IMG/VR virus record: IMGVR_UViG_3300048836_000712
Coordinates: 1-61,711 of that record
DNA from: a virus
Taxonomy: Duplodnaviria > Caudoviricetes
Direction: 5' to 3' (one strand)
DNA length: 61,711 bases
Within the stretch, counting starts at the first letter, position 1. Each line of letters opens with the position of its first letter. Shown here one piece after another: positions 19,755-55,209 of the stretch. Both the position numbers and the translations under genes were made by a program. Under the pieces are notes generated by a model. It worked only from the letters and a program-made list of their open reading frames with translations, was not told the origin of the DNA and ran no database searches.

Positions 19755-19763
19755 AAGAAACCT

Positions 19764-35234: not shown

Positions 35235-36681
35235 CGGCGGGCTCCATTTCTTCGTCGGCGGGTTCTTCCGCGGGCGAGGTTGTGGGCTGCGCCGCCGCTG
35301 GCGCGAGGCCAAGTTCGCCTAGCAGCGCGATTTCCTTGGCACGCTGGCGAATCTGCGATTCCCAGTCCTGGCCGCGCCGCGCGTATTCGTCGGCGAGCGT
35401 GGTCGTATGATTGGCAAGGCGCGTCGCCTGCGCCGTCGCTTCCTTGGCGGGATCAACGTGCTCGTGCCCGTCCCAAAACCACTGGTGCGGCCATTCGGCG
35501 ATAGGCGGCAGGCCCGAAGGAAAGAGGCCTGGAATGAGAACCGCCTCGTCCAGCCAGGCGGCGAGAATGCGATCCAGCACTACGCATTCGAGGTGCGATT
35601 GCTCGACGCGGATCGCTTTGAAATACGTCTGGTGGTCGAGGCGACCGGAGGCGTAGTTGTATCCGCTGCTATTACAGGCCGCGATGTTATACGGCATGTT
35701 GAGGCAGCGGCTGATTTCGTTCAGAAGTTCGCGTTTGAATTCGCCATAGGTGGTCGCGGGCTGCTCCGCTTCCATCTGGCTCATCTTCCAGCCGCCCGGC
35801 ATCGTCAGGAGGGCACGCTTCTCGAGTTCGATCGGCTCGAACGGTTCGGCAGCGTCCGCTTCGCCGTTGGCAGGCGCGTCGGTGTAGAGGATGCCCGCGA
35901 AGTCGGCGGCTGTTTCCGCCGCTGCGAGTACCGCGAGCGTGAAGCGCCGCAGCTGCGCGAACAGCGGTAGCGCCGGCATGAAGTCGGGGATGCCGCGGGC
36001 CTGGCCCGGCCGGTCGGCGCGGAACCAGTGGATCATCGATTCGACCGGAACCTTGTCGTAGGTCCGCGCTGCCAGCGATGTCATGTCGCCGGGATGCTCT
36101 CGCAGGACGTGATACTCGGTCGGGTTGCCGGCAGCGTCGAATACGATGCCGTCGATGGAGTTCGGATCGGCGCGAAACAGATCGGGTGTGCATACTTGGT
36201 CCGCCTCAACGAGCCGCACATCGAGTTGAATGGCAGTCGGCAAGGCGGGGTTACTCGTCAGAATGCCGAACGCCTCGCCATCGGAAGCGCGGGCCATTCG
36301 CATGGTGCGGAGCTTCTCGGCCAGCCCAACCGCCTTCGACCACCGCATAAAGGCCTGCTCGATGCGGCTGTTGGCGTCGGAGTCGGTGGTGAGAAGTTGC
36401 AGCCGCGGGCCGGTGCCCACCACATCGTTGGCGAGCGTGAGTGCAATCCCGCGGGCGTAGCTGTTGTTGGCGACTTCATAGCGGGCCCGGTTCCGCAGCA
36501 CGCGGCGCACGTCGGGACTGTTGGCAGCGTTGGCCGAGAGGCCGTCGGCATTCGACCAGTGGCGGCGGTTGTCGGGATTCGTCGCCGCTGCGTCGTACTT
36601 GGCGCGCACGATCCGCACCGCCCGGCTGGTGGTCGGGGTTGTCGGCTTCGACGAAAAGAGGTTGGTGAGCCAGCCCAGCAC
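35224..36681 (-). CDS. Lambda-family portal protein
   Basis: YDAA, LRNRARYEVANNSYA, RPGQARGIP, NYASGR and VDPAKE. Confidence 0.93.
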   Translation of the reverse strand: MLGWLTNLFSSKPTTPTTSRAVRIVRAKYDAAATNPDNRRHWSNADGLSANAANSPDVRRVLRNRARYEVANNSYARGIALTLANDVVGTGPRLQLLTTDSDANSRIEQAFMRWSKAVGLAEKLRTMRMARASDGEAFGILTSNPALPTAIQLDVRLVEADQVCTPDLFRADPNSIDGIVFDAAGNPTEYHVLREHPGDMTSLAARTYDKVPVESMIHWFRADRPGQARGIPDFMPALPLFAQLRRFTLAVLAAAETAADFAGILYTDAPANGEADAAEPFEPIELEKRALLTMPGGWKMSQMEAEQPATTYGEFKRELLNEISRCLNMPYNIAACNSSGYNYASGRLDHQTYFKAIRVEQSHLECVVLDRILAAWLDEAVLIPGLFPSGLPPIAEWPHQWFWDGHEHVDPAKEATAQATRLANHTTTLADEYARRGQDWESQIRQRAKEIALLGELGLAPAAAQPTTSPAEEPADEEMEPADAA

Positions 36682-37111: not shown

Positions 37112-37741
37112 TCATCGCAACAAGTTCCCAGATGAGACTTGAAGGTCATGAATATAACTGCCGAGAGCCCGCATTACGTTATCCTCTTCAGCGTCTAAAC
37201 CCATTCCAAAAATTGCGCGAAGTGCCGTATCGCAATCGACAGCGGGAACTATCTTTCTCTTTGTATAGTCGAAGCCTCGAACTGTGATAATCTGCTTCAC
37301 TACTTGTTCTAGGCACAGCAGGCGGTGCTCTAGGGACTGAGCAATAGGTTTGCACGCTTCGGAACTCGCGAGGCATCGAATAGAACGCTTGTCCCCAGTC
37401 ACGACAATCACACTAGACAATTCAGAGGCAGTCGCGAACAACTGAGCCTCGCCAGCATCGATTGCGGAAAGATCCTCAAACATCAGAAGCAACTCATTTC
37501 GAGCCGCCGGGATTTCTCCCACGTTTTGCTGGAATTCCAGAATTCGATGAAATGTCTGTTTGCCGATCTCCTGCTCTATTCGAGCGCGTCGCTTTTCATT
37601 TGTGATTCCGAAGCGATGCTTGAACGAACTCAAAATCTGGACAGATGCCCGCGTCGAATCTAAGGACGCGAGAGCATCATCCAGGAGATCGCAGGATGCC
37701 AATTTAGAGATGGCGTCATTGTCCAGAAAGAGTGGCGTCAT
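37112..37741 (-). CDS. PIN-like domain protein
   Basis: LFLDND, IDAGEAQL and VTGDKR acidic motifs. Confidence 0.7.
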   Translation of the reverse strand: MTPLFLDNDAISKLASCDLLDDALASLDSTRASVQILSSFKHRFGITNEKRRARIEQEIGKQTFHRILEFQQNVGEIPAARNELLLMFEDLSAIDAGEAQLFATASELSSVIVVTGDKRSIRCLASSEACKPIAQSLEHRLLCLEQVVKQIITVRGFDYTKRKIVPAVDCDTALRAIFGMGLDAEEDNVMRALGSYIHDLQVSSGNLLR

Positions 37742-38760
37742 GTCCGATGTTTCGGCGAACTGACACGCATGAGAAATTCCGAACTGTCCTCTGGTATCCC
37801 GCTCCAGTCCAAATTCCCAGCCATCTTTTCGTGGATTAACTTTGTCGCATCCGGGTGAGGGCAGATCAACTTTAACGCAGCATTTCCCAGTGCATGAAAA
37901 GATGGGCCCCTAAAATTTGAATAGTTTAGCACTATATGGCCAGGATCGATTTGGTGAATTCGGCCATGCGCCTTTGCTGCGTCTGCCAGTTCTTTGGCGT
38001 TCGGCCAACGTCCTGGCGAACTAAAACGGCAGTTCGAATCGCCAGTAAGTATCTCGGTCGCTGTAGCATTAGCTTCCGTCTCTTGGACATCTGTGCTGTC
38101 CTTAGCGATATGCTCATCAACCAAGACTCCATTCTGCGACACATGTCCTCGCACGATATGGCCTAACTCGTGCGCAAGAATAAAAAGCAACCATGCCTCT
38201 TGCTTTGCATTCTTGCACAAAATGATCACAGGTCGGCCGTCGACCAATGCTGCCATACCGTCCATCTTCTTCGTAGCTCTAGGAAAACTGGCTACGTGAA
38301 GGACAGGAATTCCACGGCTCCAACACCAATCGAGAAGGCTTTCGAGGCTCACCCATGGAGCGCCTGCGCGTAGGATATCTTCGCGGATTTCGGACCCGTC
38401 AGCAGGTATCGTTCCCTTCCAAGGCGTCTGAATAGACGCCGCCGCGATTTGGGCGGCACGCGTGCAAATGGAGCGTGCAATGGCAAGATCGTCTGCTGAA
38501 ACGCCTTGAGTCTTCTTGAAATTGCATGGACCAAAGTCACGCAACTCAAGGGGTGCGGATTCGTCCTGCAGGCTCGTAAGGCTTAGACCAAGATGTCTAG
38601 CTAGAAGGAGAAGGCCTTCTTGGTAGCCTGATTGTGTTTGAGCGACGCTATCTTCCCACCAACTTGGCAACACCGTATTTTGGACAAACGGAGTGTCAAA
38701 GCCGACGGCGCGCAGTCGCTGATAGAGCCCTTTCATCGGATTTTGCGCCGCGGTTGTCAT
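37738..38760 (-). CDS. ImmA/IrrE-family metallopeptidase
   Basis: FILAHELGH and ETEANA. Confidence 0.85.
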   Translation of the reverse strand: MTTAAQNPMKGLYQRLRAVGFDTPFVQNTVLPSWWEDSVAQTQSGYQEGLLLLARHLGLSLTSLQDESAPLELRDFGPCNFKKTQGVSADDLAIARSICTRAAQIAAASIQTPWKGTIPADGSEIREDILRAGAPWVSLESLLDWCWSRGIPVLHVASFPRATKKMDGMAALVDGRPVIILCKNAKQEAWLLFILAHELGHIVRGHVSQNGVLVDEHIAKDSTDVQETEANATATEILTGDSNCRFSSPGRWPNAKELADAAKAHGRIHQIDPGHIVLNYSNFRGPSFHALGNAALKLICPHPDATKLIHEKMAGNLDWSGIPEDSSEFLMRVSSPKHRT

Positions 38761-38885
38761 AAGTCGTTTCCCCCTTTGCTCCAACCTTCGCAATCGCAAC
38801 TTTTGATCAGCGAATATTTACCTCCACGTCCTTGAAAAGGACGACGTGTTAAACCACGTAATTCTAACGCCGAATTGAACTTGCG

Positions 38886-39074
38886 TCAATTGCCGGTTCC
38901 GATCACGCGTTCCCAGGTCGTGATTCGTTGCCCGCAGTGTCGGCACTCTCTACGACGAACAACCTTTCCACCCCAGGCCGAGCGAGTGTAGACAACCCAG
39001 AAATGTCTGCAGCCACAGTTGTGGCATTGAAGGCCGCGGTCGCCATCACGGGGCATCTTCTGATCGTGCTTCAC
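38886..39074 (-). CDS. Zn-ribbon protein (NrdR-N/Ogr-like), possible late activator
   Basis: CHNCG...RRRECRHCGQRITTWE. Confidence 0.7.
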   Translation of the reverse strand: MKHDQKMPRDGDRGLQCHNCGCRHFWVVYTRSAWGGKVVRRRECRHCGQRITTWERVIGTGN

Positions 39075-40465
39075 AAATGCTTCCTCCGTTGAAGTTCGGC
39101 AAAACTAATCCGCTCACGCTTGACCGGTTGAACGGCTCCGCCGGCCCCCGCCAACACTGCCCCCTGAATCGACGCCGCTGCAGCACATCCAACGAGGCCG
39201 TCAAACCAGTGGTTGTCGCCTCTCTCTGGTCGCATCTTCCATTCGTCAACGGTCCGCCCGCGGCCTTCGGTTTTCACGCGGTACTCGGACGTTAGATGCT
39301 CGACGAAGAGACGGTGCTGTTCCGGGCCATCGCCGAAGATGGAGAGACAGCCACGGTCGCCCATCGGCACCACAAGCCGAGCGTGGACGAACGTCTTCCA
39401 GAAGTTGGTGTCGTACACGACGTGGCGTACCGCGCGCTTGCCGGCGACGTTCGGCATCCGCCAGTTGTGGCCGACGCGATCACCTGGTCGGCGCTTGTAC
39501 TCAGAAAACGGCTGGCTCGACGCGCCGACGAACCGTCCGTGGCTGGGCATGACGACTCCCGCGTGCGCCGACTGCCGGCAGAATTGGTAGACCACATCCG
39601 TACTCGATCCCCAGTTGGCGTCGATCAGACAGCGTTCAACCCGCAGCATCGCCCCGTCGTCGCGTCGCCATTCGCGTCCAAGATAGGAAGTGGTGAGCTG
39701 CTCGAGGCCAGCGTAGATGGCCCCTTCGATGCCGCTGGCCTTGGTCGCTAGCGGCAACGTGAGCCGTGCATCGCGGAGTGTGAAATACGGTCGCTGCTGG
39801 TCGGGGAATGTACCGTAGTCGATGACGTATCCGGTGAAGTCGTCCTCCCATGCGGCGACCACGAAGAACAGCAGGTTCGCCTGCACGTCGATAAACATGG
39901 TGACGTGGTTGCAGCCGACTGGCACGGCGCGGCGCTGCATTCGATTGGTCTTGCTGGCAATCTGGTCAGCTGAGAGTTCTTCAGACTCGGACGTTTCCGC
40001 AGGAAGCGGTTCGTTCTGGTACTCCGCGAAGAATGCTGCTTCGTCCTGAAGGCGAAGGTTCATCGCATGCTGGATCGCAGATAGCTCGTCGTGGTTGAAT
40101 CGCTCGGGCCAAGCGATCTCTGCGCCGGCGTCCATCGCCTCGCGATCGGCAGCATAGAACTCGGTTGCCAGACGAATGTCGCCGTGGGCGCGGAGACTTT
40201 CGCCACGCAATTCACCGTACCGCTGCCACTTCTTCTCTTCGACTGGGAACGAGTAAACCATCTTCGTCCGCTCGCCGTTCCACTCCGGGTGCTTGTCACG
40301 CGAGAGGATGTTGTCCGCCATGTCGCCAGGACGAATCACCGTGCAAGGCATGATCCCGCTGATCTTCTTGCCTGGTCCAGCCAAACCGAGAATGGCACCA
40401 GCCAAGATTCCCTCGCGCGTCGCGCACTGCGAAAGCGAACGAGCGGATTCGTCGGTCTGCGGATC
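39071..40465 (-). pseudogene. terL: Terminase large subunit, C-terminal part (fused in frame to the element B LSR)
   Basis: Starts at DPQTDESARS; FIDVQ and DNHWFD gpA-type nuclease motifs. Confidence 0.88.
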
Positions 40466-40489
40466 GTCCCCTCCCACGACCTGTGTGGA
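40466..40489 (-). other. att junction at the LSR end; attP half-site
   Basis: Minus strand TCCACAC-N14-GAC. Confidence 0.85.
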
Positions 40490-42217
40490 AGCGAAAGCTG
40501 ATTGCAAATCGGCGTACAGAATAATCGTGCCAGTGTTGGCGTCGGGTTCGATCTCGATGCGCTGCACGAAAGCTTCCACCAATTGCCGATCGGCCAGGGT
40601 GATTTCGGCCTTCGCAGCAATCGCATCCAGTCTCGCCAGTTGCTCACTGGCCCAATCGCGTAATTGCTGTTGAGTGAGCGCCGGTCGCGTCGTCGCGTCG
40701 CTGGCCTTCTGCTGGCTCATCAGCGCGTCGCGCTTCCGCTTCAGTTCCGTCAGCACGGTGTGAATGTCATCCAGGCCGTCGAAGGTCGGGTCGGCGAGCA
40801 AGGCAACGGTCGTCTTGATGCGGCGGTTGATCTGGTCGAGCTCGCGCCGTTGCTCCGAAGCGTTGGTGGCCGCAATCGGCTTCGAGACGGATTTCACAAA
40901 GGCGTCGATGGCCTGCTTCCGCGTCTTGGCGTCGCCCTGCAACACCTGGCCGATGACCTTCAGCACGAACTCATCGAGCGCCGGCCCCGGAATACGAACC
41001 AGGCCGCAAACATTCTTCCCGTAGCGATGGTAGCCGGAGCAGGTGTAATGCCGGTAAGGACCGCCAAGTCCCGGCTTCCGCCGGTGGTCGCGGACGGTCG
41101 TGAAGCTCATACCGCAGCGTTTGCAAACGAGCAGCGTCGAAACCAGCGTGCGCCGCACCGAGCGGGCTTTGCCGCCGGCGTCCCTGCGTTTCAGGATGCC
41201 CGCCTGAACGGCGTCGAACGTCTCCTTGGAAACCAAAGGTTCGTGAACGTTGGGGACGATGATCCAGTCCGACTCCTGGTTCTTAAAGTTACCGCGTTTG
41301 CCCTTCTTGGCCTTCAGCTTGCCGTTGGCGTCCATGCTGAACAGCGAGCCGCTTGTCCGCTTGTTGTAGGCCAGCGCTCCGTAGTACACCGGCGACCGCA
41401 GCATCTGCGCGATGTTGGACGTGTTCCATTTGAATCCGAACATCGTCGGCACGCCTTCTTCGTTGAAGCGCTCCGCGATGTACTTGAACCCGTAGCCCTT
41501 CGCGCTGAGGTCGAACATGCGCTGAATCGCTTGGACGTGCTCCGGCGTGCTGGGCGTATAGCGCACGATGTCTCCCTTCGCCTTGGCCACGTAAACGTCG
41601 CCGGCAATGGTGCGGACCAGCTTGCCCTCGGCGTCGAATTCGAGTTTGCTGCCATCGGCCATCCAACGCAGCGTGCGGACGACTTTGCCATCCGGCGTGA
41701 CGTGCTGCTTGTCGTAGCCGTAAGGCGGTTGCCCGCCCGGCGCGCTCTTGCGTTCGCGGATGTTGCTGATTTGACCGCGAATGGAATCCCGCGCGAGCTT
41801 CACCGAGTACTGCCGCGCTTGCCAGGACTTCACGCCCTGAATGAGTTCGCCTTCGTCGCCCTCGGGAATGCCGTCAGCGGTGAAAACTACATCGACGCCG
41901 GCGAGCCGCAAGCGATGCAGGTAATACCCGGTCTCATTCGTTCCGCCGCGCGAGAAGCGTGAAATGTCATAGCAGAGAATGGTGTCGAAGTCGCGACCGT
42001 TCTCGGCGGCAGCGATGATCTGTTCGAACGCATTGCGGCCCTTCGCGCTGGTGCCGGAGATTGCGTCATCGATGAACCACCGCACGATGCGGTAGCCATG
42101 CTCCTTGGCCCATTTCTCGACGTAGGCCTGCTGGTCGGGGATCGAGCGCTCCTGCATGTCGGTGCTGCGGCGGGCGTAGCCGACCGCAGGGATGCCACTA
42201 GAATTACGAGTAGCCAT
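40466..42217 (-). CDS. Large serine recombinase of element B (no stop; reads through into terL-C as far as 39071)
   Basis: YARRST, DISRFSR, PPYGY and CKRC...YTC; first part of the 1053-aa ORF. Confidence 0.92.
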
Positions 42218-42459
42218 TGCTTCCCTTTCCAATACAAAGGGTGGTCTTGGTCAGAGCCGCTTCGGCGTTGCGCGTCCGAGCGGCTCGTTTCGTTCACGAA
42301 CCACCACAGTTACCAGGACATCGCCGCAGTCATCCAGCCGGTACCAGCGCGCGCGGGTGGCCTGCGTTCGCGTCGCCGGGCCGGTCGGACGAGCGGTCCA
42401 ACCGTAAGAAAAGGCCGCGTCGTGCGGCCTCGTGGGCGACGTGGTGGCGAACCGGGGCA

Positions 42460-42693
42460 TCAGATGCCGGCCGTGGTGGCCACTGCGAACTCCCCGTCGC
42501 GCGGGCGGCGCTTGGCCGCACCACGCCAGCCTTTGATCGCGCGGAACAACCGGCACTTGGCGGCGATCTCCCGTTTGGTCGGCAGGTATTCGAGCGTTCC
42601 GTTCGTCGCCCGCGTCCATCGCCCGCGATCTACCCACCGGCCTTCGATCTGCCACTGGCGGACTTGGCCTGTCAACATCTTCTGCTCGTCCAT
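42460..42693 (-). CDS. Small YLPT-motif protein
   Basis: YLPTKREIAAKCRLFRAIKGW; similar to 6008-6220. Confidence 0.6.
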   Translation of the reverse strand: MDEQKMLTGQVRQWQIEGRWVDRGRWTRATNGTLEYLPTKREIAAKCRLFRAIKGWRGAAKRRPRDGEFAVATTAGI

Positions 42694-42814
42694 CGTTCTG
42701 GCTCCCAATTATGTGGTTTCGGCGGGCGGCCATTCCGCCCGCGGGAGTCACACAGGAGCCAGCAGTTCCGAAACATTGCAAGTCAATCGCTGCCAAATTG
42801 CTGAAGATTTTCAT

Positions 42815-43051
42815 CTAGGCTTCATCCTCGTCGACAAGTTCCGCCAGGGCGTCGTTCCACGGCAATCGGCCATCGCGGATCGCGGCCTCGATCCGTTTGA
42901 AGAACCGCCATTCCCACAGCGGGACGATGGCGACGTCCTCGCGCTTGTACCGCCGCACGATGATCGGCTCGTCCGTATTCGCCACGTGCTGGCAGGCGAT
43001 GCCCAGCCCGTCACGAAGGTGCGTAATGCTCATCTGGTGTTCGGTGGCCAT
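42815..43051 (-). CDS. Phd/YefM-like antitoxin-fold regulator
   Basis: MSITHLRDGL...VANTDEPIIVRR...VAIVPL. Confidence 0.7.
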   Translation of the reverse strand: MATEHQMSITHLRDGLGIACQHVANTDEPIIVRRYKREDVAIVPLWEWRFFKRIEAAIRDGRLPWNDALAELVDEDEA

Positions 43052-43349
43052 AAAAATTCGGACATGTACAAGAATAAAACACTGTCCTGATTTGCGACTG
43101 TTCCCGCACGCCTCGGGAAGACGGCCTCGGCGGGGAAGTACCTACGCGACTGTCCGGTTCGAATAGTGACCACCTGGCCCGACCATACGCCACACGGGCC
43201 AACGTGGCGCGACGGGTGGCCTCGGTCGTACCCATCAACCTCGCGTGCTTGCGCTTCGCGCGCTACGCATACAACCCGGCCCCGGGCGTGCGTTCGCGCA
43301 CGCACCGGGGGGGTACGGGGGGGCGCGCGTACAGAACACACAAAGCGCA

Positions 43350-44960
43350 TCACCTCTCCTCCGGTTGCGGTTCGGTGGCGAACTGCACTGGATGGGTAGC
43401 ACCGAATTTCCAGCGGTGAATCAACCCCTGCGACTCGGCCTGCTTGAGCAGCTTGGTCGCCTTGCGTTCCGACAAGCCGGCATCCATCGCCGCCTGCGTG
43501 AGGGCCAGGATCGTGGCCGGCGTCGAGCCGACGAACGACTCGGCGAACCGCTCGACGTCCCACTCAGGCTTGGCCGGCGCGTCGGGGGCGACGGGTTTGG
43601 GTTCCTTGCGCCGTCGCGGGCGCTCAGGCCGCAGGTCGGCCGGGTCGAGCGAGTCGTCGGGGGTCCAGACGGGAAACGTCCACCGCAAGCAGCGCGGCGA
43701 CAACGGGGGCCAGGACCGAACGGCAGCATCGAGCACGACCACGTCGTCCTGCTCATGCGGCCGCAGGATCAGGTGGGTATCGGTGGCCCGCGACTGCGAG
43801 CCCGCGCCGGCCCCGACGTCGGTCACGCTCTTGCCCGACTGGTTCCCCTTGCTGCTGTGATGCACCAGCGCGAAGGCGCACCCCAAGCGGGCCGCGAACG
43901 AGTCCAGCACGTTGTAGACCTGGGCCATCGTCCCGTTGTCGTTCTCGTCGGTGTCGCGCGGCATGAATCTGTAAAATGCATCGAGCACCACGAGCTTGAA
44001 CCGGCCCGGCGGCAACTGCTGGAAGTATTCCCCCAGGCCGAAGATGTCCTTGAGCCGGCCCCGCATGTTGGCGACGAACACGCGGTCGGCGACTTCCTCG
44101 AGCACAACGTCGCGGGCCTGCATCACCTTGGGGATGCGATGGGCGCTCGTCTCGCGGTGCAATTCGTTGTCGACGATCAGCACGTCCCCCCGCTCACACG
44201 CGAACGTATCAAGCCAGGAGCGTCCGGTGGCGACCGCCAGGGCCAGATCGGTCACGAGCCAACTCTTGCCGACTTTGCTGGTTGCGATCACGTTCATGGT
44301 TTCCCCTTCCCGCAGTAGGCCGTGAATCACCGGCCGGCGCAGGTCGGGGTTCTCGTTGATCAGTTGGCGAAGGCTCTTGACCGCCAGGGAAAGGGGCAGG
44401 TTGTTGGCCTTCGCCTCTTCCTTGGCGACTTGTTCGAGGCGGTCGAGCAAGGCGCGGCGCTCGGGGTCGATGCACTCCTCCGGCGCGGGCGGGCCCTTGA
44501 TCGTGGCCGGGTTGATTTCCGCGCCGGCCCACCGCCGCACCCGCTCGGCCCAAGGTTGCATCACCAGCAGGCGAATTGCCTCATCGAGAACTCCCCGGTC
44601 CTCGAACTTCTCCCAGCACTGGGCGGCAAGCTCGAAGGCCTGGACGCGGCCCCGATGGCGGGCGGCCTCAACGTCGTGCCCCGCGCGGTAGAGCACCTGC
44701 TCGGAATCGAATTCGGGATTCCCGTACAGCGCGGCGCTGGGAACCAGCACCTCGGCGCGCTCGCGGGCGTTGCGGCGATCCTGCCAGGCGGCTTCAATCA
44801 ATTCGCAGTCGGGGATGTCCCACTCCGCGACGACGTTCGCCGCCTCTACGAAGGCGGATCGATAGGCCCGCTCCGCTTCCATCAACAGAGGCGTGGAGGA
44901 AAAATCGGGACCGTCGTTGTAGAACCGCACCGTGTCAGCCGGCAGCGTCAGCGTTGGCAT
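43350..44960 (-). CDS. AAA_25/RepA-type replicative helicase
   Basis: ATSKVGKS, VDNEL, LVVLDAFYR, LVHHSSKG and GAGSQSR. Confidence 0.88.
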   Translation of the reverse strand: MPTLTLPADTVRFYNDGPDFSSTPLLMEAERAYRSAFVEAANVVAEWDIPDCELIEAAWQDRRNARERAEVLVPSAALYGNPEFDSEQVLYRAGHDVEAARHRGRVQAFELAAQCWEKFEDRGVLDEAIRLLVMQPWAERVRRWAGAEINPATIKGPPAPEECIDPERRALLDRLEQVAKEEAKANNLPLSLAVKSLRQLINENPDLRRPVIHGLLREGETMNVIATSKVGKSWLVTDLALAVATGRSWLDTFACERGDVLIVDNELHRETSAHRIPKVMQARDVVLEEVADRVFVANMRGRLKDIFGLGEYFQQLPPGRFKLVVLDAFYRFMPRDTDENDNGTMAQVYNVLDSFAARLGCAFALVHHSSKGNQSGKSVTDVGAGAGSQSRATDTHLILRPHEQDDVVVLDAAVRSWPPLSPRCLRWTFPVWTPDDSLDPADLRPERPRRRKEPKPVAPDAPAKPEWDVERFAESFVGSTPATILALTQAAMDAGLSERKATKLLKQAESQGLIHRWKFGATHPVQFATEPQPEER

Positions 44961-45111
44961 GCTCGCCCTCCATCCGCTTTGCTTCCCACTGGGCGAGCAG
45001 CCAAGCGGCGAGCGCCTCGACGCGCCGTTGGCGATAATCCTCATTCTCTTGGGGCGCGCAAAACGCCACGCGCACGTCGTAGTTGCCGACGCGCTCCGTC
45101 GTTTCGGGCAT
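44935..45111 (-). CDS. 58-aa hypothetical protein (not in the ORF track)
   Basis: AAGGAGG RBS; MPETTERVGNYDVRVAF...RRVEALAAWLLAQWE; overlaps the helicase start. Confidence 0.55.
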   Translation of the reverse strand: MPETTERVGNYDVRVAFCAPQENEDYRQRRVEALAAWLLAQWEAKRMEGEHANADAAG

Positions 45112-45282
45112 GACCGTTCCTCCTTTGCCGAGTGCTGCGGGAAGCAGCGAGAGGGGCGCGGCGGCCCGCAGGGGTCTGCCTGCGGACCGCGGTCGCCAAG
45201 CGGCGAGGTCGGTCGGTGGATCGGTAGGTTGGTTCGGTGGGGGGCGGTTGGATGACTACGGGTATCCCGAAGTGAGAAGCGA

Positions 45283-47124
45283 TCAGGCTTCCCCCTTGGC
45301 CTTGTAGGCGGCACGGTGATCGGCCAGGGCCGCACCGAAATCGTGATACACCCGCCACGATGCGGCCAGCGTGTTGGGGTCGGCATCGAACCCGAAGAAC
45401 TCGACGGTGGGGGACTGCTTCCCTTGGAGGAACGCAACCACCAGCGCGGCGTCCGCCGGGCCGGCGAACAGATACCACGCCTTGCCGCTCGTGCCGTCGA
45501 ACCGCTCGTCGTTCGACAGACGCGGCTCGACCTCTAGCGACACCGAATTCTTCAGCGCGTTGCCGGTCGGCAGGTCGTTGTTGGCCCGCTGGATGAAGTC
45601 GCTGAGCAGCAACTCCTTGGCGGTCTGTTGCAACTCCGGCGGCACCAGGAGCGTGCGCGGCCGGATGTCGAGGTCGCGGTTCTCGTCGTCCCGTTGCGCC
45701 AGCATCTTGGCGATGCCGGCGGCGAGCGAAGTCGAACCGAGCACCGTCCCCGCGCCGGCGTCGTAGTTGCCGTGGCCGGTGCTGAAGAAGTTGCCGGTGT
45801 TCGCCAGCAGCACCTTGTAGACTAGGTCGGAGAGCGAACGCATCGCGGCCCGCCCCAGCGAGCGGGCCGTGTCGTCGAACAGGCTGAGGTCGTCGTTGAT
45901 GATGTCCCGCCGGTCGATGCTGAGCATCTTGGCGAAGGTGTCGATGGAGAAACCGTACATCGCCTCCTTCACCGAGCCGTGCTTGATCTCGCCGCCGGGC
46001 GGAAGCTGCGTCAACTCCCCGGTATCGCTGATGCGGATGCCGGTGTGTTGCTTGAAATCGACGGCCGACTTCACCGAGGCGAAGGCCCGCCAGGTGGCCG
46101 GCGACTCGGTGTAGGACTCGAACAGCAGCTTGTTGGCCGCGTCCCCCAGGGCGGTCGGCAACGAGTAGGTGGAGAGCGCCGCCTTGATCAGCCCGTCGCG
46201 GCCGTGCGGGGCGTCGCGGCCGTCGATTACGAGCGCCGCACGGCACAGATCGACCAGGTTCGTCGCCCGCAGGTCGCGGGCCCGCTGCGCGGCTTCCGGC
46301 CCCAGGTGCTTCTCGGCCAGGTGCTCGCTGTTCATGTGGGCCAGGATCGCCGCCTCGAGCACCAAGCGCGAGGCGGGCTCCTCGCGGGGGTGCGTCGAGA
46401 GCGGGATCGGCCGCCGCGCCCGCAGCACTTCCAGTTCCGTCCGCTGAGCGTCCCAGCCCTCGGCGATGGCCTTGGCTTCGATGTTGCCGAACCGCCCGCC
46501 GCAGGCCTTGCGGATGGCGTGGATGCGAGTCGTTTCCGCCAGGGCGTCGGCCCGAATCTGCTCGGCGGTGAGCGTTTCCGTTTGAGACATGTTTTGCTCC
46601 TTCCCGTTGGCCGCAATCGAGACCGACGTACCGGCGTCGGCCCCGATGGCGACGATGCTGACCTCCCGCAGCACGCCCGCACGCACGAGCGTGAACCCGC
46701 TGGCCGGCGCTTTGAGGGCGCGGCCGTTGACCTCCACCGTCTCGCCGCCCCGCACCCGCTGGTAGTCGGTGGGTGCGACGCCGACCGATGCCTGGAAGCG
46801 GAACCCGCCCTTGGCCAGATCGACCACTTGGCGAGCCGCATCCGTTGAAGGCGTGATGGTGCCTTGCACCAGCAACTTGCCGTTGGCGACCACCGCTTTG
46901 CCATGCCCAACAATGCCGGCTAGCGAAGCATTGTGATCGGCCAGGATGCTCACCTGCTCGGCCGAGGCGTCGATGCCGCCGAGTTCAATGGCAACCGGGC
47001 CCCAGCCGGGCACAACCATCAGTCCGCCGGTATAGGCGACGATGCTCACCGCCGGCGACTTGCCCGTTGCCTGAATCTCGACCTCTGCGGCCGAGAGCAA
47101 AAGTTCATCAATTGCAACGGTCAT
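45283..47124 (-). CDS. Element B prohead protease-major capsid fusion
   Basis: ILADHN, FQASVG, EVSIVAIGAD, GEIKHG and HDFGAALADHRAAYKAKGEA. Confidence 0.92.
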   Translation of the reverse strand: MTVAIDELLLSAAEVEIQATGKSPAVSIVAYTGGLMVVPGWGPVAIELGGIDASAEQVSILADHNASLAGIVGHGKAVVANGKLLVQGTITPSTDAARQVVDLAKGGFRFQASVGVAPTDYQRVRGGETVEVNGRALKAPASGFTLVRAGVLREVSIVAIGADAGTSVSIAANGKEQNMSQTETLTAEQIRADALAETTRIHAIRKACGGRFGNIEAKAIAEGWDAQRTELEVLRARRPIPLSTHPREEPASRLVLEAAILAHMNSEHLAEKHLGPEAAQRARDLRATNLVDLCRAALVIDGRDAPHGRDGLIKAALSTYSLPTALGDAANKLLFESYTESPATWRAFASVKSAVDFKQHTGIRISDTGELTQLPPGGEIKHGSVKEAMYGFSIDTFAKMLSIDRRDIINDDLSLFDDTARSLGRAAMRSLSDLVYKVLLANTGNFFSTGHGNYDAGAGTVLGSTSLAAGIAKMLAQRDDENRDLDIRPRTLLVPPELQQTAKELLLSDFIQRANNDLPTGNALKNSVSLEVEPRLSNDERFDGTSGKAWYLFAGPADAALVVAFLQGKQSPTVEFFGFDADPNTLAASWRVYHDFGAALADHRAAYKAKGEA

Positions 47125-47726
47125 TTCACCACCTCCTGGGGCTCAAGCTTAGCGCCCTTGGGGTAAAACCAGACGTAGGCGTAATCATCAGGGTCTTCGG
47201 CGGGTTCGATCACCGTCGCCAGTCCCAACGGGTCAAAACTCAACCCGACGCTAACGCCGTAGCGCGCGGCGGCGACGCGATGTGCTTTGACACATTGGCC
47301 AAATCGCAGATTGCATACCCAGCAGAAGTGCGTCCACGAACCCCAGTACTCATGCTCATAGAGCCATTCGGCGGCTGCATCGATGTCCTCCTTCTCCCAG
47401 AACATGATGTGGATGGACGGAACGTAATCGACGTTGCCCTGGTCGTCGGTCACCAGCGAGTGTCCGCGGCGGGGATTGCAGATGCCCCGCTCGACTAGGT
47501 GCTGCAGCATCGGCTCGTCGCACTTGAGCCCGCGCAGCCGCAGCTCGCGGAACGCTCCTTCGGTGTGCTTCGGGTACTGGAGCGACGAACTCGAGTTGTA
47601 ATGGTTCGGATTGGGAATGTCCGAACCGGGCAACAAACTGATCAGGTGATTGAAGTCTTCCCGCAGCCAGTAGTAGCGCTTCTTGCTTTCCTGCCGCGCG
47701 GGCAGTTCGTCAGTCAGCTTTGGCAT
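47121..47726 (-). CDS. Conserved pre-capsid protein (homolog of 3304-3822)
   Basis: PKHTEGAFRELRLRG, WEKEDIDAAA and VIEPA. Confidence 0.75.
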   Translation of the reverse strand: MPKLTDELPARQESKKRYYWLREDFNHLISLLPGSDIPNPNHYNSSSSLQYPKHTEGAFRELRLRGLKCDEPMLQHLVERGICNPRRGHSLVTDDQGNVDYVPSIHIMFWEKEDIDAAAEWLYEHEYWGSWTHFCWVCNLRFGQCVKAHRVAAARYGVSVGLSFDPLGLATVIEPAEDPDDYAYVWFYPKGAKLEPQEVVK

Positions 47727-48261
47727 TCTTGTGCTCCTTTCGTAGTGCTTCCAATTCTCGTTCCACGGTCCGCAAGCCGATGCTGAGTTCGTCAGCAATC
47801 TCGGCGTTGGAATAGCCCGCCATGCGCAGGCCGATGACCTTGCGCCGGCGCGGCGGCAATGACGCGAGATAGTCGTTGAGTCGAGCTATCTCGGCGGGGT
47901 CGCCCTGCGCCCGTTCGTGCCGCGAGGGGGTGTCCCAAGCACGAACGGCGTCTTCACTCCAGAGATTCCCTGATTGGTCGATGGATGGGCTGGTGAGTAG
48001 GTCGGATTGGGATTTCGGTTCGTGGCGTCGTTGGGATCGATAGTCGCGGAACAAGTTTGAGATGCGGGCGACCATGCGGTTCTTGGCCAGACCAAGGTCG
48101 CCTTCGTCTTGCCAGACCTGCCAGCCGGCAAGGAACAGGTCTTGCGCCGCGTCTTCCATGCGGTGCTCGTCCCAGTTCAGTTGGCGTCGCCTCTTCAGCT
48201 TCCGCACCAAGGCTTGGGCGAACTTGAAAAGGTCTTCAGGACTATCGCGTTCTTCAACCAT
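47710..48261 (-). CDS. ECF sigma-factor-like regulator
   Basis: EDAAQDLFL (region 2-like) and LPPRRRKVIGLRMAGYSNAEIADELSIGLRTVER (region 4). Confidence 0.8.
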   Translation of the reverse strand: MVEERDSPEDLFKFAQALVRKLKRRRQLNWDEHRMEDAAQDLFLAGWQVWQDEGDLGLAKNRMVARISNLFRDYRSQRRHEPKSQSDLLTSPSIDQSGNLWSEDAVRAWDTPSRHERAQGDPAEIARLNDYLASLPPRRRKVIGLRMAGYSNAEIADELSIGLRTVERELEALRKEHKNAKAD

Positions 48262-48513
48262 TCGTCCTCCATCGAGGCCATCATCGGCCCCTATCCAACT
48301 AATCCACGCGAGGGCGTCGGAACCCGCCAAGGATTTTCCGCTCGCGGGCACCGTGCCCGTCTAACCCCTTATTTCCTGCGGCAGGGCGAGTTCGTAAAAG
48401 CACGGCCGGAAAATTTTCTCCCACGCCCTTGACAGATGATTGTGCGGAGATACCTGATCGGCTAAAATTCGTCCAACTATTGAGGGATCGATTCTTCTTA
48501 CCGAGGTTGGAAC

Positions 48514-49557
48514 ATGAAGCCTACTCGGGGTTTAGCCTGTCCAGTGATGGTCCCTTCCAGGATCGATTGGGAGCGGGATTATTCAGAATTGACCACAGCC
48601 GATCTGGCGGCGATGTCGGATGAGCAATTGGCGGCGGTCGATCCGCTGGCGATAAACCTCATCGTGGCCAAAGGCCTCCCGTCGCTGGCCGACCTCGACA
48701 TCCGGCCCTACCAGGACATCGTGGACGGATGGGTGCTGGATTTGAACCGCCGCTGCCTGCCGCAATGGGAGCCGCACTTCCATCAATCGCCCCAAGACTG
48801 GGAGAACGACATTCGGTACTTCCGCTTGGGCATGGTCTGCCAGTACCTCGATCTGGAAGTCGGCATTCAGTACAACCAGCACCAGCGCGACGTATCCCGG
48901 ATCCTCTACACCAATCCGTCGGACGTTTTTCTGAACGGCGTGCTCGATACCCGCGAGGGCACCTGTGGCAACCTAGCCGCTCTGCACGTAGCGATGGGCT
49001 GGCGGATGGGTTGGCCCGTCTCGCTCGCCTGCGTCGTATCGCATTACATTCTGCGTTTCGACGATGGCGAGGTAATCTACAACATTGAGGCGACGCAGGC
49101 TGGTCATGGCGGGTTCAAGTCCGACCCCGACGATTACCTCATCAGAGAGAAGAAACTGCCGGCAATTGCAATCACGAGCGGTTCCGATCTACGCGCCGTG
49201 CGGCCGCGTGAAATGCTGGGCATCTTCATCAGCCTTCGGGCGCGGCACCTTCAAGACGTAGGCAAGCAGCAGAACCGCGAGGAACTGATGCTGGCGTCCG
49301 AGGCCGACTGGCTGTTGGCCCGGCACCTTTTCCCGCGCAATCGGGCCATTTACAAACACCAGATGGTCATCTCGGCCATGCGCGGCGATCATCTATTCAA
49401 CGAAGACGAAGGCGGTCATCCCAATACGTTTAGTTTGTTGCTCGACGAGATCGCGAGCCGTCGCGGCCGCAATCAGATCGTCGCGCAGCAAGAACTCACT
49501 CTGCCAAACTCCAAGGCCATCGACGAACTCTTCTCGGCTATCGAGGTACGCATATGA
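48514..49557 (+). CDS. Transglutaminase-like (SirB1-like) protein
   Basis: FLNGVLDTREGTCGNL...SHYILRF...NIEAT. Confidence 0.75.
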   Translation: MKPTRGLACPVMVPSRIDWERDYSELTTADLAAMSDEQLAAVDPLAINLIVAKGLPSLADLDIRPYQDIVDGWVLDLNRRCLPQWEPHFHQSPQDWENDIRYFRLGMVCQYLDLEVGIQYNQHQRDVSRILYTNPSDVFLNGVLDTREGTCGNLAALHVAMGWRMGWPVSLACVVSHYILRFDDGEVIYNIEATQAGHGGFKSDPDDYLIREKKLPAIAITSGSDLRAVRPREMLGIFISLRARHLQDVGKQQNREELMLASEADWLLARHLFPRNRAIYKHQMVISAMRGDHLFNEDEGGHPNTFSLLLDEIASRRGRNQIVAQQELTLPNSKAIDELFSAIEVRI

Positions 49558-50327
49558 CAACCACCCTGACCGCTCCCGTCCGCAATCGCTCCACCAATCG
49601 TCTGAGTCGTTTCGCTCCGATGCTTGACCAGCTGGCCGATCCACTTGGATATGAGGCCGGCGACGCGAATCTGCGCCGGTACGTCGGAAATTCGCCGACG
49701 GACTTAACCGATCCAACTGGACTTAGCCCATGGAAGGGTATCGCTGGAATTCTAGGGAAAAAATGGACTGCGGAAACTTGCGAGCGAGCCGGAAAAACGC
49801 TCGCAACTGAACTGTTGCAGAAATTAGCCCAACAACGCCCAGATTCGCAAAAGGCTCAAGAAATACTGCGAGCTCTAAAGAACATGGGTTGGGTTGAAGA
49901 AGCGTTAGGAAAGGGATCAAAAGCAGGTAAGTCACTTGAAGAGGGTGGGGGAATTGTTCTGCGCGAGATGGAGAATGGGAAACCGACCGGACGGTTTCTG
50001 GAATGGTATCCCGGGGAAGGGCCCCACCACAAAGATCCTCACTGGAAATTTAGTAGTGGAGAGTCTGGAACATTGCGAACCACCATCACAGGAACAGTCG
50101 CGGCAATTGCAATTGCAGTCGTTCCTGGTGCAGCCCAGGCGAGCGAAGGTGATTGGAATGGCGCTGGTAGGGATGTGTTTGTCGAGGTGACGCCACTGGC
50201 TTGGTCAAAAATGATGTGGGAAACGCTGGGTTCTTTTTTTGATTTCTGTGAAAGCGATCTGTACGGCGAGGATTACCACCGTGAGATGGAGGAATACCGA
50301 AAGGAGTACTGGAAAAATAAGAAGTAA
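49554..50327 (+). CDS. Rhs core-end fragment plus C-terminal toxin-like domain
   Basis: DPLGYEAGDANLRRYVGNSPTDLTDPTGL, then a lower-GC domain with GPHHKDPHWK. Confidence 0.8.
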   Translation: MTTTLTAPVRNRSTNRLSRFAPMLDQLADPLGYEAGDANLRRYVGNSPTDLTDPTGLSPWKGIAGILGKKWTAETCERAGKTLATELLQKLAQQRPDSQKAQEILRALKNMGWVEEALGKGSKAGKSLEEGGGIVLREMENGKPTGRFLEWYPGEGPHHKDPHWKFSSGESGTLRTTITGTVAAIAIAVVPGAAQASEGDWNGAGRDVFVEVTPLAWSKMMWETLGSFFDFCESDLYGEDYHREMEEYRKEYWKNKK

Positions 50328-50374
50328 ATTGCGACCAAGTACTTTCGAGATGCATTTGGTAGGCCTAAACAACA

Positions 50375-50779
50375 ATGAGTAACGCCGCTAGCAAGCTAAA
50401 TTTGATCCAGTTGCGTAAAAGTCTGCAACAAGCGGCCCTGCCAGCAGACCGTCAAATCGCGCGCCTACAAGGCTTTGACGTAGCATTTGAAGTTGCCGAT
50501 GACTTTGACAACTGGTGCCGCTGGGCGTTGAATAGTGCAGACACACAATTGACGGATGAGCAGCGGTCCCTACTTATCGAGTTGAACAATCGTCTCAATC
50601 AAATGAGCGGCGAACACAACTCCGATCTCTGGACCGATGACGCACTTCGGTCGCGAAACGAATGGGATGAAGTGCGGCGTGAGGCTCGATGTATTCTCGA
50701 TTCCTTTAGCTGGCCGATTGAAGATGCGGAGAAATCGGAAATAGAAGTGGTTCGAGTTAATCCTAGCTCGAACACCTAA
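50375..50779 (+). CDS. Putative immunity protein
   Basis: Small acidic ORF directly after the toxin-like gene. Confidence 0.55.
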   Translation: MSNAASKLNLIQLRKSLQQAALPADRQIARLQGFDVAFEVADDFDNWCRWALNSADTQLTDEQRSLLIELNNRLNQMSGEHNSDLWTDDALRSRNEWDEVRREARCILDSFSWPIEDAEKSEIEVVRVNPSSNT

Positions 50780-50852
50780 ACTTCAGTTTCTGTTTGAGTG
50801 GGAAACCCCAGTATTGGTTATTCTCCCCCGCTCCCACGCGAACGCGACCCGC

Positions 50853-50875
50853 TCCACACGGCTACCCATCCTGTC
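50853..50875 (-). other. att junction on the terL-N side; attP half-site
   Basis: Minus strand GAC-N13-GTGTGGA, the inverted match to TCCACAC at the other junction. Confidence 0.85.
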
Positions 50876-51748
50876 GAGCACCACGAGCGACGGGCGAACG
50901 GTGTGGCCGTCGGCGCGCTTGTACTTCATGCCGCGGATGCGGCCTGTAATTCCCGCGACTTTGATGATCGCACCGCTGCCCACACTGCCGGGCATCGTCG
51001 GCAGTACGATCTCACGAGCGGTCCAGCCGATGTGCGTCCGTTCGCCTTTGTAGAGCTGGCCGTTGCATCGATTGGCGATCCCGTCGAGGCACTGGATTGG
51101 ATAGACGACCTCGGGGAAGTCTTCGAGCAGCAGGTCGTTGCCGTCGAGCTCCATCTTGATCGAGTCGAGCATATCCATCGCATGGCCTTCGTCCGATCCG
51201 ATCAGGCAGACGAAGTCGCGGTGCCCGTACAACACCGCCCAGATACAGGCGCACTCACAGATGGTGGTCTTGCCCGAGCCTCGCGGCATCGCCATTGCGA
51301 ACAAACCGCCGCGTAACACCGCCTGCTCGATCTTGCCAATGACCTTCAGATGGTCCGGCGACCACGGCAAGTGAAACGTGAGCGGGAAATACGACTCGCA
51401 GAAGAAGCGGAAATCAGAAGCAGCCTGCTTCTTGCGTTCGATATTGACGACGGCCGGCAGGTCGCCGATGTCACGGCCTGCGATGGCGAGCGCGACGTTC
51501 CTCGCCCGAGCTCGATCCTTCAGCTTCTCGTAGGGATCGCCGTCGGGTTCGGGTTTTGGTGCGTGCCGCAGCTCGACGAGCCACGCAGCGTAACGCAGTA
51601 AATCGACAAACCGGGCGTCGCCAATGCGGAGGCCGGCTCGCGTGCGATGGCGATGCAGCTGGCGCTCGTTGATGACTTCGCCGAGCGGCGTCGAGTTGAG
51701 CAGCCGGCAGAGTTCGCTCGGTCGTAGCTTTCGCGGATCAGTCGCCAC
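50873..51748 (-). pseudogene. terL: Terminase large subunit, N-terminal ATPase part
   Basis: Walker A MPRGSGKTT; ends at Walker B RPSLVVLD, then a 29-aa foreign tail to 50783. Confidence 0.88.
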
Positions 51749-51962
51749 GCCCCATCTCCTTCACCAGCCACGCGGCGTAGTGGACCAGGTTGATCGTTCC
51801 GTCTGCGTTCGTTGGTGCGCCGGCCGCTACGTCATCACGCAGCATCGATTCGGCAATCGATGGAGCCCCTACCCGAGCCAACAGACGGGCTGCGGCGGGC
51901 AACGCCAGAGCGCTTGGGTTCAAGCCAGAACCGGGCGAATTCCCTTGGCTTTCCGCCATCAT
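51738..51962 (-). CDS. Small HTH-like protein at the terminase small subunit position
   Basis: AAARLL...GAPTNADGTINLVHYAAWL; overlaps the terL start. Confidence 0.6.
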   Translation of the reverse strand: MMAESQGNSPGSGLNPSALALPAAARLLARVGAPSIAESMLRDDVAAGAPTNADGTINLVHYAAWLVKEMGRGD

Positions 51963-52081
51963 TTGGTCCCCGAAAAAAAGCTGCGAAATCGAGCCGGAAT
52001 CCGCTGGATGTTCTCTGGAAACAGAGGTAACTGTGTCAGCGTTGAATGACCTAAACCATTCCCGCCAAAGGAGAAACGACC

Positions 52082-52900: not shown

Positions 52901-52921
52901 CGCTCGCGACGGGTTCCGCCC

Positions 52922-53913: not shown

Positions 53914-55209
53914 TCATTTGCGTTCCGCCTTCCGCCCCGTGAATTTCTCCCAGCGCTGGACGATCACGTCGCAATAGGGTGGATCAAGCTCCATGAGGAA
54001 CGCCTTGCGGCTCGTCTGCTCGCAGGCGATAAGCGTCGAACCACTCCCGCCGAACAAGTCCAGAACGTTCTCGCCGATGCGCGATGAATACTGCATCGCT
54101 CGCACCGCCAGCTCGACGGGCTTCTCCGTGAGGTGGACCATCGACTGCGGATTGACCTTCTTCACATGCCAAAGGTCGGTCGCGTTGTTCGGGCCGTAGA
54201 ACTGATGCCCAGCGCCGAGCCGCCAACCGTAGAAGCAGATCTCGAACGCGCCCATGAAATCCTTGCGCGTGAGCACAGGATGCTGCTTGTCCCACACGAT
54301 GCCTTGGCTGAAGTACAGATCGTGCTTCTTCAGGAACGGTGGATAGTTCCCGAGGTTGGCGTACCCACCCCAGATATAGAAACCACGTCCGGCCTCCAGC
54401 ACGCGGGCCATGTTGCCGAACCAGGCATCGAGCAGTTCGTCGAATGCTTCATCGGTCACGAAGTCGTTTGCAAGCGGTCGATCCTTGGCTCGCATCTTCT
54501 TGTGGGTCGCCTTCGCTTTCTCCGGGTGGCGTTCCAGATCGAACTTCTGATGATGCTTGTTCGGGTTCGCAAAGCTGCTGTTGCCGGCGGCGATGGCATT
54601 GTTGCTGCGCGGCTCGACCTTCACGTTGTAGGGAGGGTCCGTGTTCACGAGTTGGATCGTCGCGCCGTCGAGCAACCGATCCACATCCGCTGGCTTCGAC
54701 GAGTCGCCGCATAGCAATCGGTGATCGCCGAGAATCCAGAGGTCGCCCGGTTGCGTGATTGCTTCGTCTGGCGGGGCTGGCACATCGTCGGGATCGGTGA
54801 GGCCTTCCTGCAAATCGCCGCCGAGCAGCTTGGCGAGCTCGTCCTGGTCGAATCCCAACAGGCCGAGGTCGTAATTGGCCGCTTGCAATTCACCAAGCTC
54901 GATCGGCAAGAGATCGTAATTCCAGTCCGCGAGCGATGCGGTCTGATTGTCCGCGATCCGATACGCCTTGATCTGCTCGGACGTGAGGTCCTTGGCGACA
55001 TGAACGGGAACCTTTTCCAGGCCCAGCTTCTGCGCCGCCTTGAAGCGGGTATGCCCGCAGATGATTACCCCCTCCGCATCGACGACGATGGGTTGACGGA
55101 ACCCGAACTCGCGCAGCGACGCCGCCACGGCATCGACCGCGTCGTCATTCACCCGCGGGTTGTTGGGATAGGGTTTGACCCGCGATACGGGCCAGAGATC
55201 GATCTTCAT
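53914..55209 (-). CDS. ParB-N fused N4/N6 DNA methyltransferase
   Basis: NNPRVND, GHTR, TDPPYNV, HLTEKP and DLFGGSGST. Confidence 0.92.
   Translation of the reverse strand: MKIDLWPVSRVKPYPNNPRVNDDAVDAVAASLREFGFRQPIVVDAEGVIICGHTRFKAAQKLGLEKVPVHVAKDLTSEQIKAYRIADNQTASLADWNYDLLPIELGELQAANYDLGLLGFDQDELAKLLGGDLQEGLTDPDDVPAPPDEAITQPGDLWILGDHRLLCGDSSKPADVDRLLDGATIQLVNTDPPYNVKVEPRSNNAIAAGNSSFANPNKHHQKFDLERHPEKAKATHKKMRAKDRPLANDFVTDEAFDELLDAWFGNMARVLEAGRGFYIWGGYANLGNYPPFLKKHDLYFSQGIVWDKQHPVLTRKDFMGAFEICFYGWRLGAGHQFYGPNNATDLWHVKKVNPQSMVHLTEKPVELAVRAMQYSSRIGENVLDLFGGSGSTLIACEQTSRKAFLMELDPPYCDVIVQRWEKFTGRKAERK

Follow-up and report, generated by a model that had tools for sequence, protein, structure and literature searches.

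Why should the gene for a site-specific recombinase run, without a stop codon, into the C-terminal part of a phage terminase? The question is raised by IMG/VR virus record IMGVR_UViG_3300048836_000712 (Duplodnaviria; Caudoviricetes), of which positions 1 to 61,711 were analysed; this whole stretch of 61,711 nucleotides is called the window below. The recombinase is a large serine recombinase (LSR) and its partner is the large terminase subunit (TerL, encoded by terL). An initial annotation had placed the attachment site, attP, inside the LSR gene, such that integration exchanges the C-terminus of the enzyme, and had suggested that the alternative tails, the LSR-TerL chimera or the truncated TerL could have functions of their own. 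Our analysis bears out the first part of this proposal. As to the second, we consider it probable that the locus is an LSR-driven, satellite-like element lodged in the terL gene of a helper phage, with the chimera as incidental read-through; the chimera itself is most likely a by-product of how this family of elements recognises its targets. The composite locus has the following parts, given here with open reading frame abbreviated as ORF:

39071..42232, (-) strand: chimeric LSR-TerL-C ORF of the integrated state, 1053 aa, stop-free
40466..42232, (-) strand: LSR, 589 aa from the TTG at 42232 or 584 aa from the ATG at 42217
39071..40465, (-) strand: TerL-C, 464 aa (the remaining ATPase and the GpA nuclease domain), beginning DPQTDESAR
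50873..51748, (-) strand: TerL-N, 292 aa, with Walker A motif PRGSGKT and the C-terminal end ...RPSLVVLD
50783..50872, (-) strand: element-encoded tail of 29 codons and a stop (RMGSRVERVAFAWERGRITNTGVSHSNRN*), now behind TerL-N and predicted to be the LSR C-terminus in the excised circle

Pfam domains follow one another in the 1053-aa ORF in the order Resolvase (residues 16-153), Recombinase (230-347), Zn_ribbon_recom (365-427) and GpA_nuclease (748-1024). As had been noted, the LSR, counted as 584 aa from the ATG at 42217, continues without a stop into the 464 aa of TerL-C, and the junction peptide of the chimera reads STQVVGGDDPQTDESAR. At the other end, the ORF 50783..51748 (-) encodes 321 aa, of which 292 are TerL-N and 29 the tail. 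TerL-N matched phrog_38 (terminase large subunit) with E = 5.5e-21, and its ORF had no Pfam match at E <= 0.01. The tail peptide foreseen in the initial annotation is encoded in frame behind TerL-N, at 50786-50872 (-). Thus, the swap of the LSR C-terminus upon integration is seen as two composite frames, LSR-TerL-C (39071..42232) and TerL-N-tail (50783..51748).

We compared the junctions with 80 viral loci encoding relatives of TerL-C (73-95% identity). In 76 of them the frame is uninterrupted and insertion-free, reading ...RPxLVV[LI]D|DPQTDESARSLS; since these loci read across the same codon, removal of 40466-50872 would recreate an ordinary terL. Three of the exceptions (L035, L083 and L086) read ...GGD from an LSR, and the fourth (L079) ends at a contig edge. 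TerL-C is up to 95% identical to its counterpart in L015, and the identity of TerL-N with its relatives is 87-90%. An assembly artefact peculiar to the studied record can be dismissed as the source of the fusion, because the same junction recurs in 6 of 10 viral LSR loci and in the metagenome locus L095, and because a 415-nt contig of an unrelated run (X4 record 17) covers it (40260-40674). Over 463-464 codons, no stop interrupts TerL-C in the window or in six of the seven other fused copies. One further locus, L116 (2319-3790), has a rearranged or chimeric copy in which the first 448 LSR residues run into the end of TerL-N (...LVVLD) and then into a P'-type tail.

The sequences that meet at the two junctions, together with one vacant site of the same kind, are:

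40466..40468, (-) strand: attR core, the Asp codon GAC with the crossover dinucleotide (GA by dyad symmetry)
50873..50875, (-) strand: attL core, GAC, the Walker-B-like Asp codon of terL
40469..40488, (-) strand: attP left arm in the LSR frame, CCACACAG (40481-40488) and a 12-nt spacer, encoding ...STQVVGG
50854..50872, (-) strand: attP right arm, 11 nt after the shared C and then CCGTGTGG (50854-50861), encoding RMGSRVE of the tail
54259..54261, (-) strand: vacant alternative target in the same helper, the Asp323 codon of the ParB-methylase (...VLTRKD|FMGAFE), used by many relatives

Identity between the two junctions is limited to the GAC triplets at 40466-40468 and 50873-50875. When the arms are joined, the reconstructed attP is a 42-bp imperfect dyad, CCACACAG-12 nt-GA-12 nt-CCGTGTGG, as read by eye from the junction sequences. 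It lies wholly within the reading frame of the free-form LSR, in agreement with the proposal that attP is inside the integrase gene. The folded LSR ends in an Asp codon, and the axis of the dyad separates the first base of that codon, G, from the second, A. The crossover dinucleotide is thereby put at GA, which fits an LSR. A site of this simple, short form, an imperfect dyad with few shared bases at the crossover, is itself typical of LSRs. Just past its crossover, the methylase gene (FMGAFEICFYGWRLG, 54214-54258) appears to resemble the window tail (RMGSRVERVAFAWERG, 50826-50872), with ATGGG in the DNA and M, G, E, F, W and G in the peptide as common features. The B' arm of the methylase may thus be what the P' arm imitates or descends from.

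The protein has the domains of an LSR. The resolvase catalytic domain PF00239 is found at residues 16-153 (E = 8.6e-25), and R21, R22 and S23 are invariant among 60 aligned relatives, with S23 the likely nucleophile from its position in the motif. The recombinase and zinc-ribbon domains (PF07508 and PF13408) are also present, and C370, C373 and C409 are invariant in the same alignment. An AlphaFold2 (AF2) model built from the 60 sequences (mean predicted local distance difference test score, pLDDT, 82.9) has long helices at 438-539 following the zinc ribbon. Its last folded parts are strands at 556-562 and 567-572 and a helix at 576-582, so that the predicted fold is complete by residue 582. 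Residues 583-589 (TQVVGGD) have pLDDT < 50 and are predicted to be disordered. On this model, the exchange would fall after a complete enzyme. Sequence matches to the SPbeta and A118 integrase structures were weak, and the LSR C-terminus lies outside the matched part.

If these parts are put together, LSR recombination would have brought a 10.4-kb element into the terL gene of a GpA-type phage, at the codon for the Walker-B-like Asp. The free circle would encode the LSR with its 29-aa tail, and the integrated copy would encode the LSR followed by whatever lies past the target crossover, here 464 aa of TerL. The chimera would be tolerated because the exchange falls in a disordered C-terminal appendage, and is probably neutral. 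Excision, presumably on induction, would restore the split terL exactly, an arrangement of the kind seen in helper-embedded satellites.

Both DNA states are represented among relatives. Tails matching the predicted RMGSRVERVAFAWERG of the window follow the LSR in P0004, P0019, P0023, P0013, L100, L103 and L110, and the excised form anticipated in the initial annotation, ...GGD|RMGSRVERV.F.WERG..., is present in P0004, P0019, P0023, L103 and L110. L109 and L110, which come from two assemblies, have 0 mismatches through position 7734 and diverge right after GGGGAC, where L110 continues with the P' arm (AGGATGGGTAGCCGTGTGG...) and L109 with unrelated DNA. By their sequences, these two loci are the same element in two DNA states, broken where predicted, and such natural attP and integrated forms of one element imply that the LSR family is active. 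In the contigs of X4, which is another sludge sample, the loose end at 50875 joins a P' arm at least 90% alike to a methylase B arm encoding KEHPVLTRK; thus, the target of very similar elements is terL in one case and the methylase gene in another. Other contig joints listed, with sides of 20-31 nt at unrelated places, were regarded as noise. In L103 (1087-6340), an LSR with an intact attP-type tail is followed, within about 1.7 kb, by an uninterrupted terL; this could be a capture of late genes, a tandem or a chimera of the assembly.

The exchange of tails is a property of the whole family. We examined the 120 LSR homologues listed (47-81% identity) and sorted what follows the LSR by simple motif classes. 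All 120 align to a conserved ...ST[RQ]xxxGD and then diverge at once. The continuation is the ParB-methylase (FMGAHEWCFYGW...) in 23 and a capsid-type end (...K.KGEA*) in another 23; 11 have an SSSHS-type tail, four an element-type tail like that of the window, and two continue into GpA TerL. The remaining 57 were classed as other, among them a variant of the element-type tail (P0005), a Terminase_6C domain (P0003), Sel1 repeats (P0048), a HEPN domain (P0094) and a tail 55% identical to residues 347-478 of the window portal (P0112). Whole elements are found in several of these targets. In L001 and L003 the entire element lies between TerL-N and LSR-TerL-C, and in L005 it lies inside a ParB-methylase gene homologous to that of the window, which is split into methylase-N and LSR-methylase-C. 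L010 is an insertion at the 3' end of a capsid gene: its left junction reads ...ALQE|PCATRVEIVPFAWHRG.. from the capsid, and its LSR ends with the capsid's own PRGGVRMKGEA. Tails of the integrated state in relatives range from 5 to >560 aa and are unrelated in content; the LSR evidently works whatever follows the Asp codon, as judged from this variation in length and content. The layout with attP in frame appears to be ancestral to a large LSR family that has repeatedly targeted phage packaging and head genes. Annotated members of the family sit in Planctomycetota records. In L114, L120, L123 and P0024, the methylase after the crossover reads HEWC|QPP... for about 270 aa before methylase homology resumes, an intein-like arrangement a few codons from attB.

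The range of partners bears on the suggestion that the LSR-TerL-C chimera, the truncated TerL-N or both act as dominant-negative inhibitors of helper packaging, in an active form of interference. Both halves of TerL are intact: the chimera keeps the whole GpA nuclease domain (748-1024), and TerL-N keeps the Walker A motif and the Walker-B-like strand. However, the family also fuses its LSRs to unrelated partners (methylase, portal, 11 aa of a capsid, a SASA esterase, a sigma-54 AAA domain) and, at antisense insertions, to junk tails, which makes a general selected role for the fused partner unlikely. We regard active interference by the chimera or TerL-N as highly improbable.

Whether the frame is preserved at other insertion sites had been proposed as a test of a functional chimera. 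A single in-frame fusion is expected by chance about one time in three and is unremarkable alone; the pattern across the family is remarkable. Flanks beyond the LSR were read in six frames in 27 representative loci, and a target was accepted only with homology support; scoring of flanks by G+C content at third codon positions (GC3) and by open frames was too noisy to give target frames and was replaced by homology-supported ORFs. The six sites in sense orientation are all in frame: GpA TerL, the ParB-methylase, the capsid 3' end, and the sites in L117 (a sigma-54 AAA domain, E = 1.5e-13), L134 (a SASA esterase) and L156 (a pectate-lyase-like protein). Out-of-frame sense ORFs across the junction appeared only as shadows of antisense genes, no separate search for them having been made. 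Four cases known as proteins only (P0003, P0048, P0094 and P0112) add four in-frame sites, with an in-frame bias because they were found via long ORFs.

Other members of the family are inserted antisense to their target. The targets are the N-terminus of an SU10-type capsid (L150, L154, L157, L160 and the remainder of the SSSHS clade), the middle of a capsid gene (L133, assigned by tblastn only), TerL-N (L151 and L153), two different places in TerL-C (L146 and L165), an ABC-F ATPase (L166) and a phytase (L122, E = 3.8e-102). Third codon positions of target and LSR frame fall on the same base pairs (offset 0) in 10 of 10 antisense loci, which correspond to 7 sites. Thus, 13 of 13 DNA-verified genic sites share the codon phase of the LSR, which by chance would have a probability of about (1/3)^13 if the sites were independent, although sites within one LSR subclade may not be. 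Eight sites without an assignable target gene were left out of this count (L009/L149, L109, L113, L130, L131, L142, L144 and L152, the last upstream of a panC-like gene). No Pfam family was matched by the antisense ORF of L133 or by the tails of L113, L131 and L009. Frame preservation elsewhere is therefore non-random, but it does not speak for a functional chimera, since the 7 antisense sites obey the same rule.

That the phase is kept equally at antisense sites, where no chimera with the target protein is made, favours a constraint at the level of DNA over selection for the chimera. With the axis between codon positions 1 and 2, wobble positions would be mirror-symmetric on both arms, and a recombinase that reads half-sites and is indifferent to wobble would accept coding targets in one phase only, on either strand. 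The occupied B arms of terL (CTCGTGGTGCTC, CTCGTAGTCATC, TTGGTCGTCCTC and CTGGTCGTCCTC) differ mostly at third positions, which is consistent with wobble tolerance. We therefore put forward, tentatively and as a proposal that may well fail, that the family practises codon-phase-locked targeting of conserved coding motifs, ignoring synonymous drift, and that the tail motif RVExVxFxWxRG is in addition a state-specific regulatory peptide lost on integration. Targeting of this kind, if true, would explain the repeated retargeting to terL, portal, capsid and methylase genes. Should the strict codon-phase rule reflect recognition, it would help in understanding serine integrases and in giving them new targets. 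If it does not reflect recognition, the chimera would be a harmless curiosity and the finding would reduce to a new member of the helper-embedded satellites.

The second half of this proposal touches on the view that state-dependent C-termini regulate the recombinase, the conserved free-form tail tuning its stability or its competence for integration until integration removes the tail. The free-form tails (RMGSRVERVAFAWERG, SRGSRVERVKFAWDRG, PCATRVEIVPFAWHRG and LLTRLKPVAFTWGPGG) are conserved past the dyad half-site and among LSR clades as little as about 50% identical. Conservation of V.F.W.RG extends beyond the first nine tail codons, also in L010 and L167, and some of the changes are synonymous; as read from the DNA, 3 of the 6 codons in RVE..RG that differ between the window and L010 are so. 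The start of the tail behaves differently. Over its first nine codons, all three codon positions are conserved, with 9 of 16 sites variable at position 1, 10 of 16 at position 2 and 12 of 16 at position 3, and these codons hold CCGTGTGG, the mirror image of the left-arm motif that encodes ST[RQ]; because third positions are kept equally and the left arm is mirrored, conservation at the start of the tail reflects attP DNA and not the peptide. Moreover, no ending resembling a degradation tag (XXXAA-type) is conserved, and both the sequence after W.RG and the stop positions vary.

A precedent by analogy exists for repressors. In mycobacteriophage integration-dependent immunity, as described in PMC3694055 and PMC8092301 (citing Broussard et al., 2013), attP lies in the repressor gene and integration removes a degradation tag, so that attP within a coding gene, with differing viral and prophage C-termini, may be called an established device. 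The likeness to the present locus would lie in the attP within a coding gene and in the two C-termini; it differs in concerning a repressor, a tyrosine integrase, an ssrA-like tag and a demonstrated effect, whereas here it is the recombinase itself that changes its end, with no recognisable tag. We consider regulation of the recombinase by its C-termini unlikely. For functional tails and a functional chimera alike, the comparative data lend no support to the initial annotation: the phase-lock holds at antisense sites, integrated tails are variable and unrelated, and the swap falls beyond the predicted fold.

Several observations weigh against a mobile, helper-dependent element whose chimera is incidental. 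The tail motif RVExVxFxWxRG is kept as far as about 45 nt past the crossover, even in clades with LSRs of only about 50% identity (L010 and L167); conservation past the dyad-defined half-site could reflect a function of the peptide and keeps the idea of tail regulation alive. No joint between 40466 and 50872, as expected of an excised circle or a restored terL of the studied copy, was found in X1, X3, X4 and X7, where assembled contigs, which drop rare forms, were searched. No recombination directionality factor (RDF) was identified. We infer helper dependence from gene content only. Finally, the LSR-TerL-C copy of L095 is frameshifted at about codon 135 of TerL-C (2976-2978), by sequencing error or decay, and some copies may thus be decaying.

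The frameshift in L095 and the missing excision joint would also suit a dead end, in which the insertion inactivated a defective prophage and left both element and terL non-functional, as would the linear form of the record and its estimated completeness of 87%. Yet the reading frames of both terL halves, the LSR and the head genes of the helper are unbroken and closely match those of uninterrupted relatives, and the family is demonstrably mobile (L109/L110) and occupies many sites. A dead end is therefore improbable, and we retain the reading of a satellite-like element within the terL gene of its helper.

The inserted element, 40466-50872, is 10,407 bp long and co-oriented with terL. Besides the LSR, the genes of the element and the helper genes that matter here are:

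42815..43051, (-) strand: small gene adjoining the LSR, weakly Phd/YefM-like (E = 0.002, below the Pfam cut-off)
43350..45437, (-) strand: AAA_25/primase-helicase-like replication gene
45283..47124, (-) strand: the element's own protease-major capsid fusion, 36% identical to the helper capsid
47710..48351, (-) strand: sigma-70 region 4/HTH protein
48514..50779, (+) strand: three opposite-strand genes at the left end of the element, one transglutaminase-like and two without family
35224-36681: helper portal
33213-35312: helper capsid
53914-55227: helper ParB-methylase

Homologues of the Phd/YefM-like gene occur in about two dozen of 90 related loci, and its product is an unproven candidate regulator or RDF. 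L001, L003 and L005, as well as many loci from metagenomes, show the same order of capsid, AAA_25, Phd-like gene and, at the right end, LSR. Of the 10 ORFs of the element that were scanned, four are without family and the protease-capsid is the sole recognised structural gene; genes for portal, terminase or tail were not detected. Portal, capsid and tail genes come from the helper, as do the ParB-methylase and a primase-polymerase/D5 helicase. Both capsid proteins, of element and helper, end in KAKGEA. The portal, capsid and tail genes lie downstream of the same-strand insertion in terL, as in the co-oriented helper-embedded satellites. An element segment resembling the helper ORF 51959-53974, seen in related loci, had no significant match in the window, and that ORF looks partly non-coding.

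The closest known parallel is with the helper-embedded phage-inducible chromosomal islands (HE-PICIs) of Enterobacteriaceae. According to PMC10111431 (Tommasini, Mageeney and Williams 2023), these lie within prophage late genes and are co-oriented with them, at 14 sites that include a Terminase_1 site, and one integrase clade, of tyrosine recombinases with AlpA, keeps retargeting late genes. The likeness lies in late-gene retargeting, including a terminase large-subunit site, and probably in restoration of the interrupted gene when the satellite excises; the word "serine" has 0 occurrences in that article (PMC10111431). The differences are that HE-PICIs have tyrosine integrases, AlpA and a long arm-type attP, whereas the present element has an LSR and a 42-bp dyad attP in its own frame. 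The element also has its own protease-capsid protein, its family includes antisense insertions, and its hosts appear to be Planctomycetota-type phages. From its sequence, then, the element appears HE-PICI-like in its working and is not an HE-PICI in the strict sense, having a serine recombinase in place of the tyrosine integrase with AlpA.

Our literature searches returned no LSR with attP in its own frame and no LSR-driven satellite embedded in a helper. To our knowledge, the only satellites so far described from within helper late genes belong to a single tyrosine-integrase clade of enterobacteria. Here an LSR appears to underlie the same embedding strategy, among distantly related phages and hosts, and the natural target specificities of its family in conserved phage genes number a dozen or more. 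Capsid-forming PICIs (cf-PICIs) encode their own capsid, portal, head-tail connectors and small terminase, and take only tails from the helper; the present element has only the protease-capsid protein among its 10 scanned ORFs and does not belong with them. LSR-driven intervening elements such as skin in sigK, SPbeta in spsM and phi-comK split host developmental genes that are restored precisely by excision. LSR excision that would restore a gene is common to both, whereas here the interrupted gene is that of a helper phage; we know of no description of attP inside the LSR frame in those systems. Integration of SSV1 reportedly splits its tyrosine integrase gene, with attP within int, into two non-functional parts. 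SSV-type archaeal integrases are said to be likewise cut by their own att site, whereas here the cut would follow a complete folded enzyme and only a disordered tail would be exchanged. An LSR with attP in its own frame would have two natural isoforms, one per DNA state, and allows one to ask whether a recombinase can carry information on its own state of integration.

Other regions of the window also stand out. At 3866-20936 (+) lies a second module of the same kind. It holds a third paralogue of the capsid protein (Phage_capsid_4, 3866-5818), an ORF of 527 aa and another LSR (7404-9251) with about 30% identity to the first. Behind this LSR come a DeoR-HTH protein, a type I restriction-modification system (11800-18904; HsdS, HsdR and two HsdM) and an FRG-domain gene. 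The module is possibly another satellite or a defence island. A third serine recombinase runs off the right end of the window (60481-61710). Between terL and the head-tail and portal genes, a low-GC insert (37112-39074; 49-53% against about 63% around it) carries a 209-aa ORF, an M78/ImmA-like peptidase (37738-38799) and an NrdR-like zinc-ribbon protein (38886-39074).

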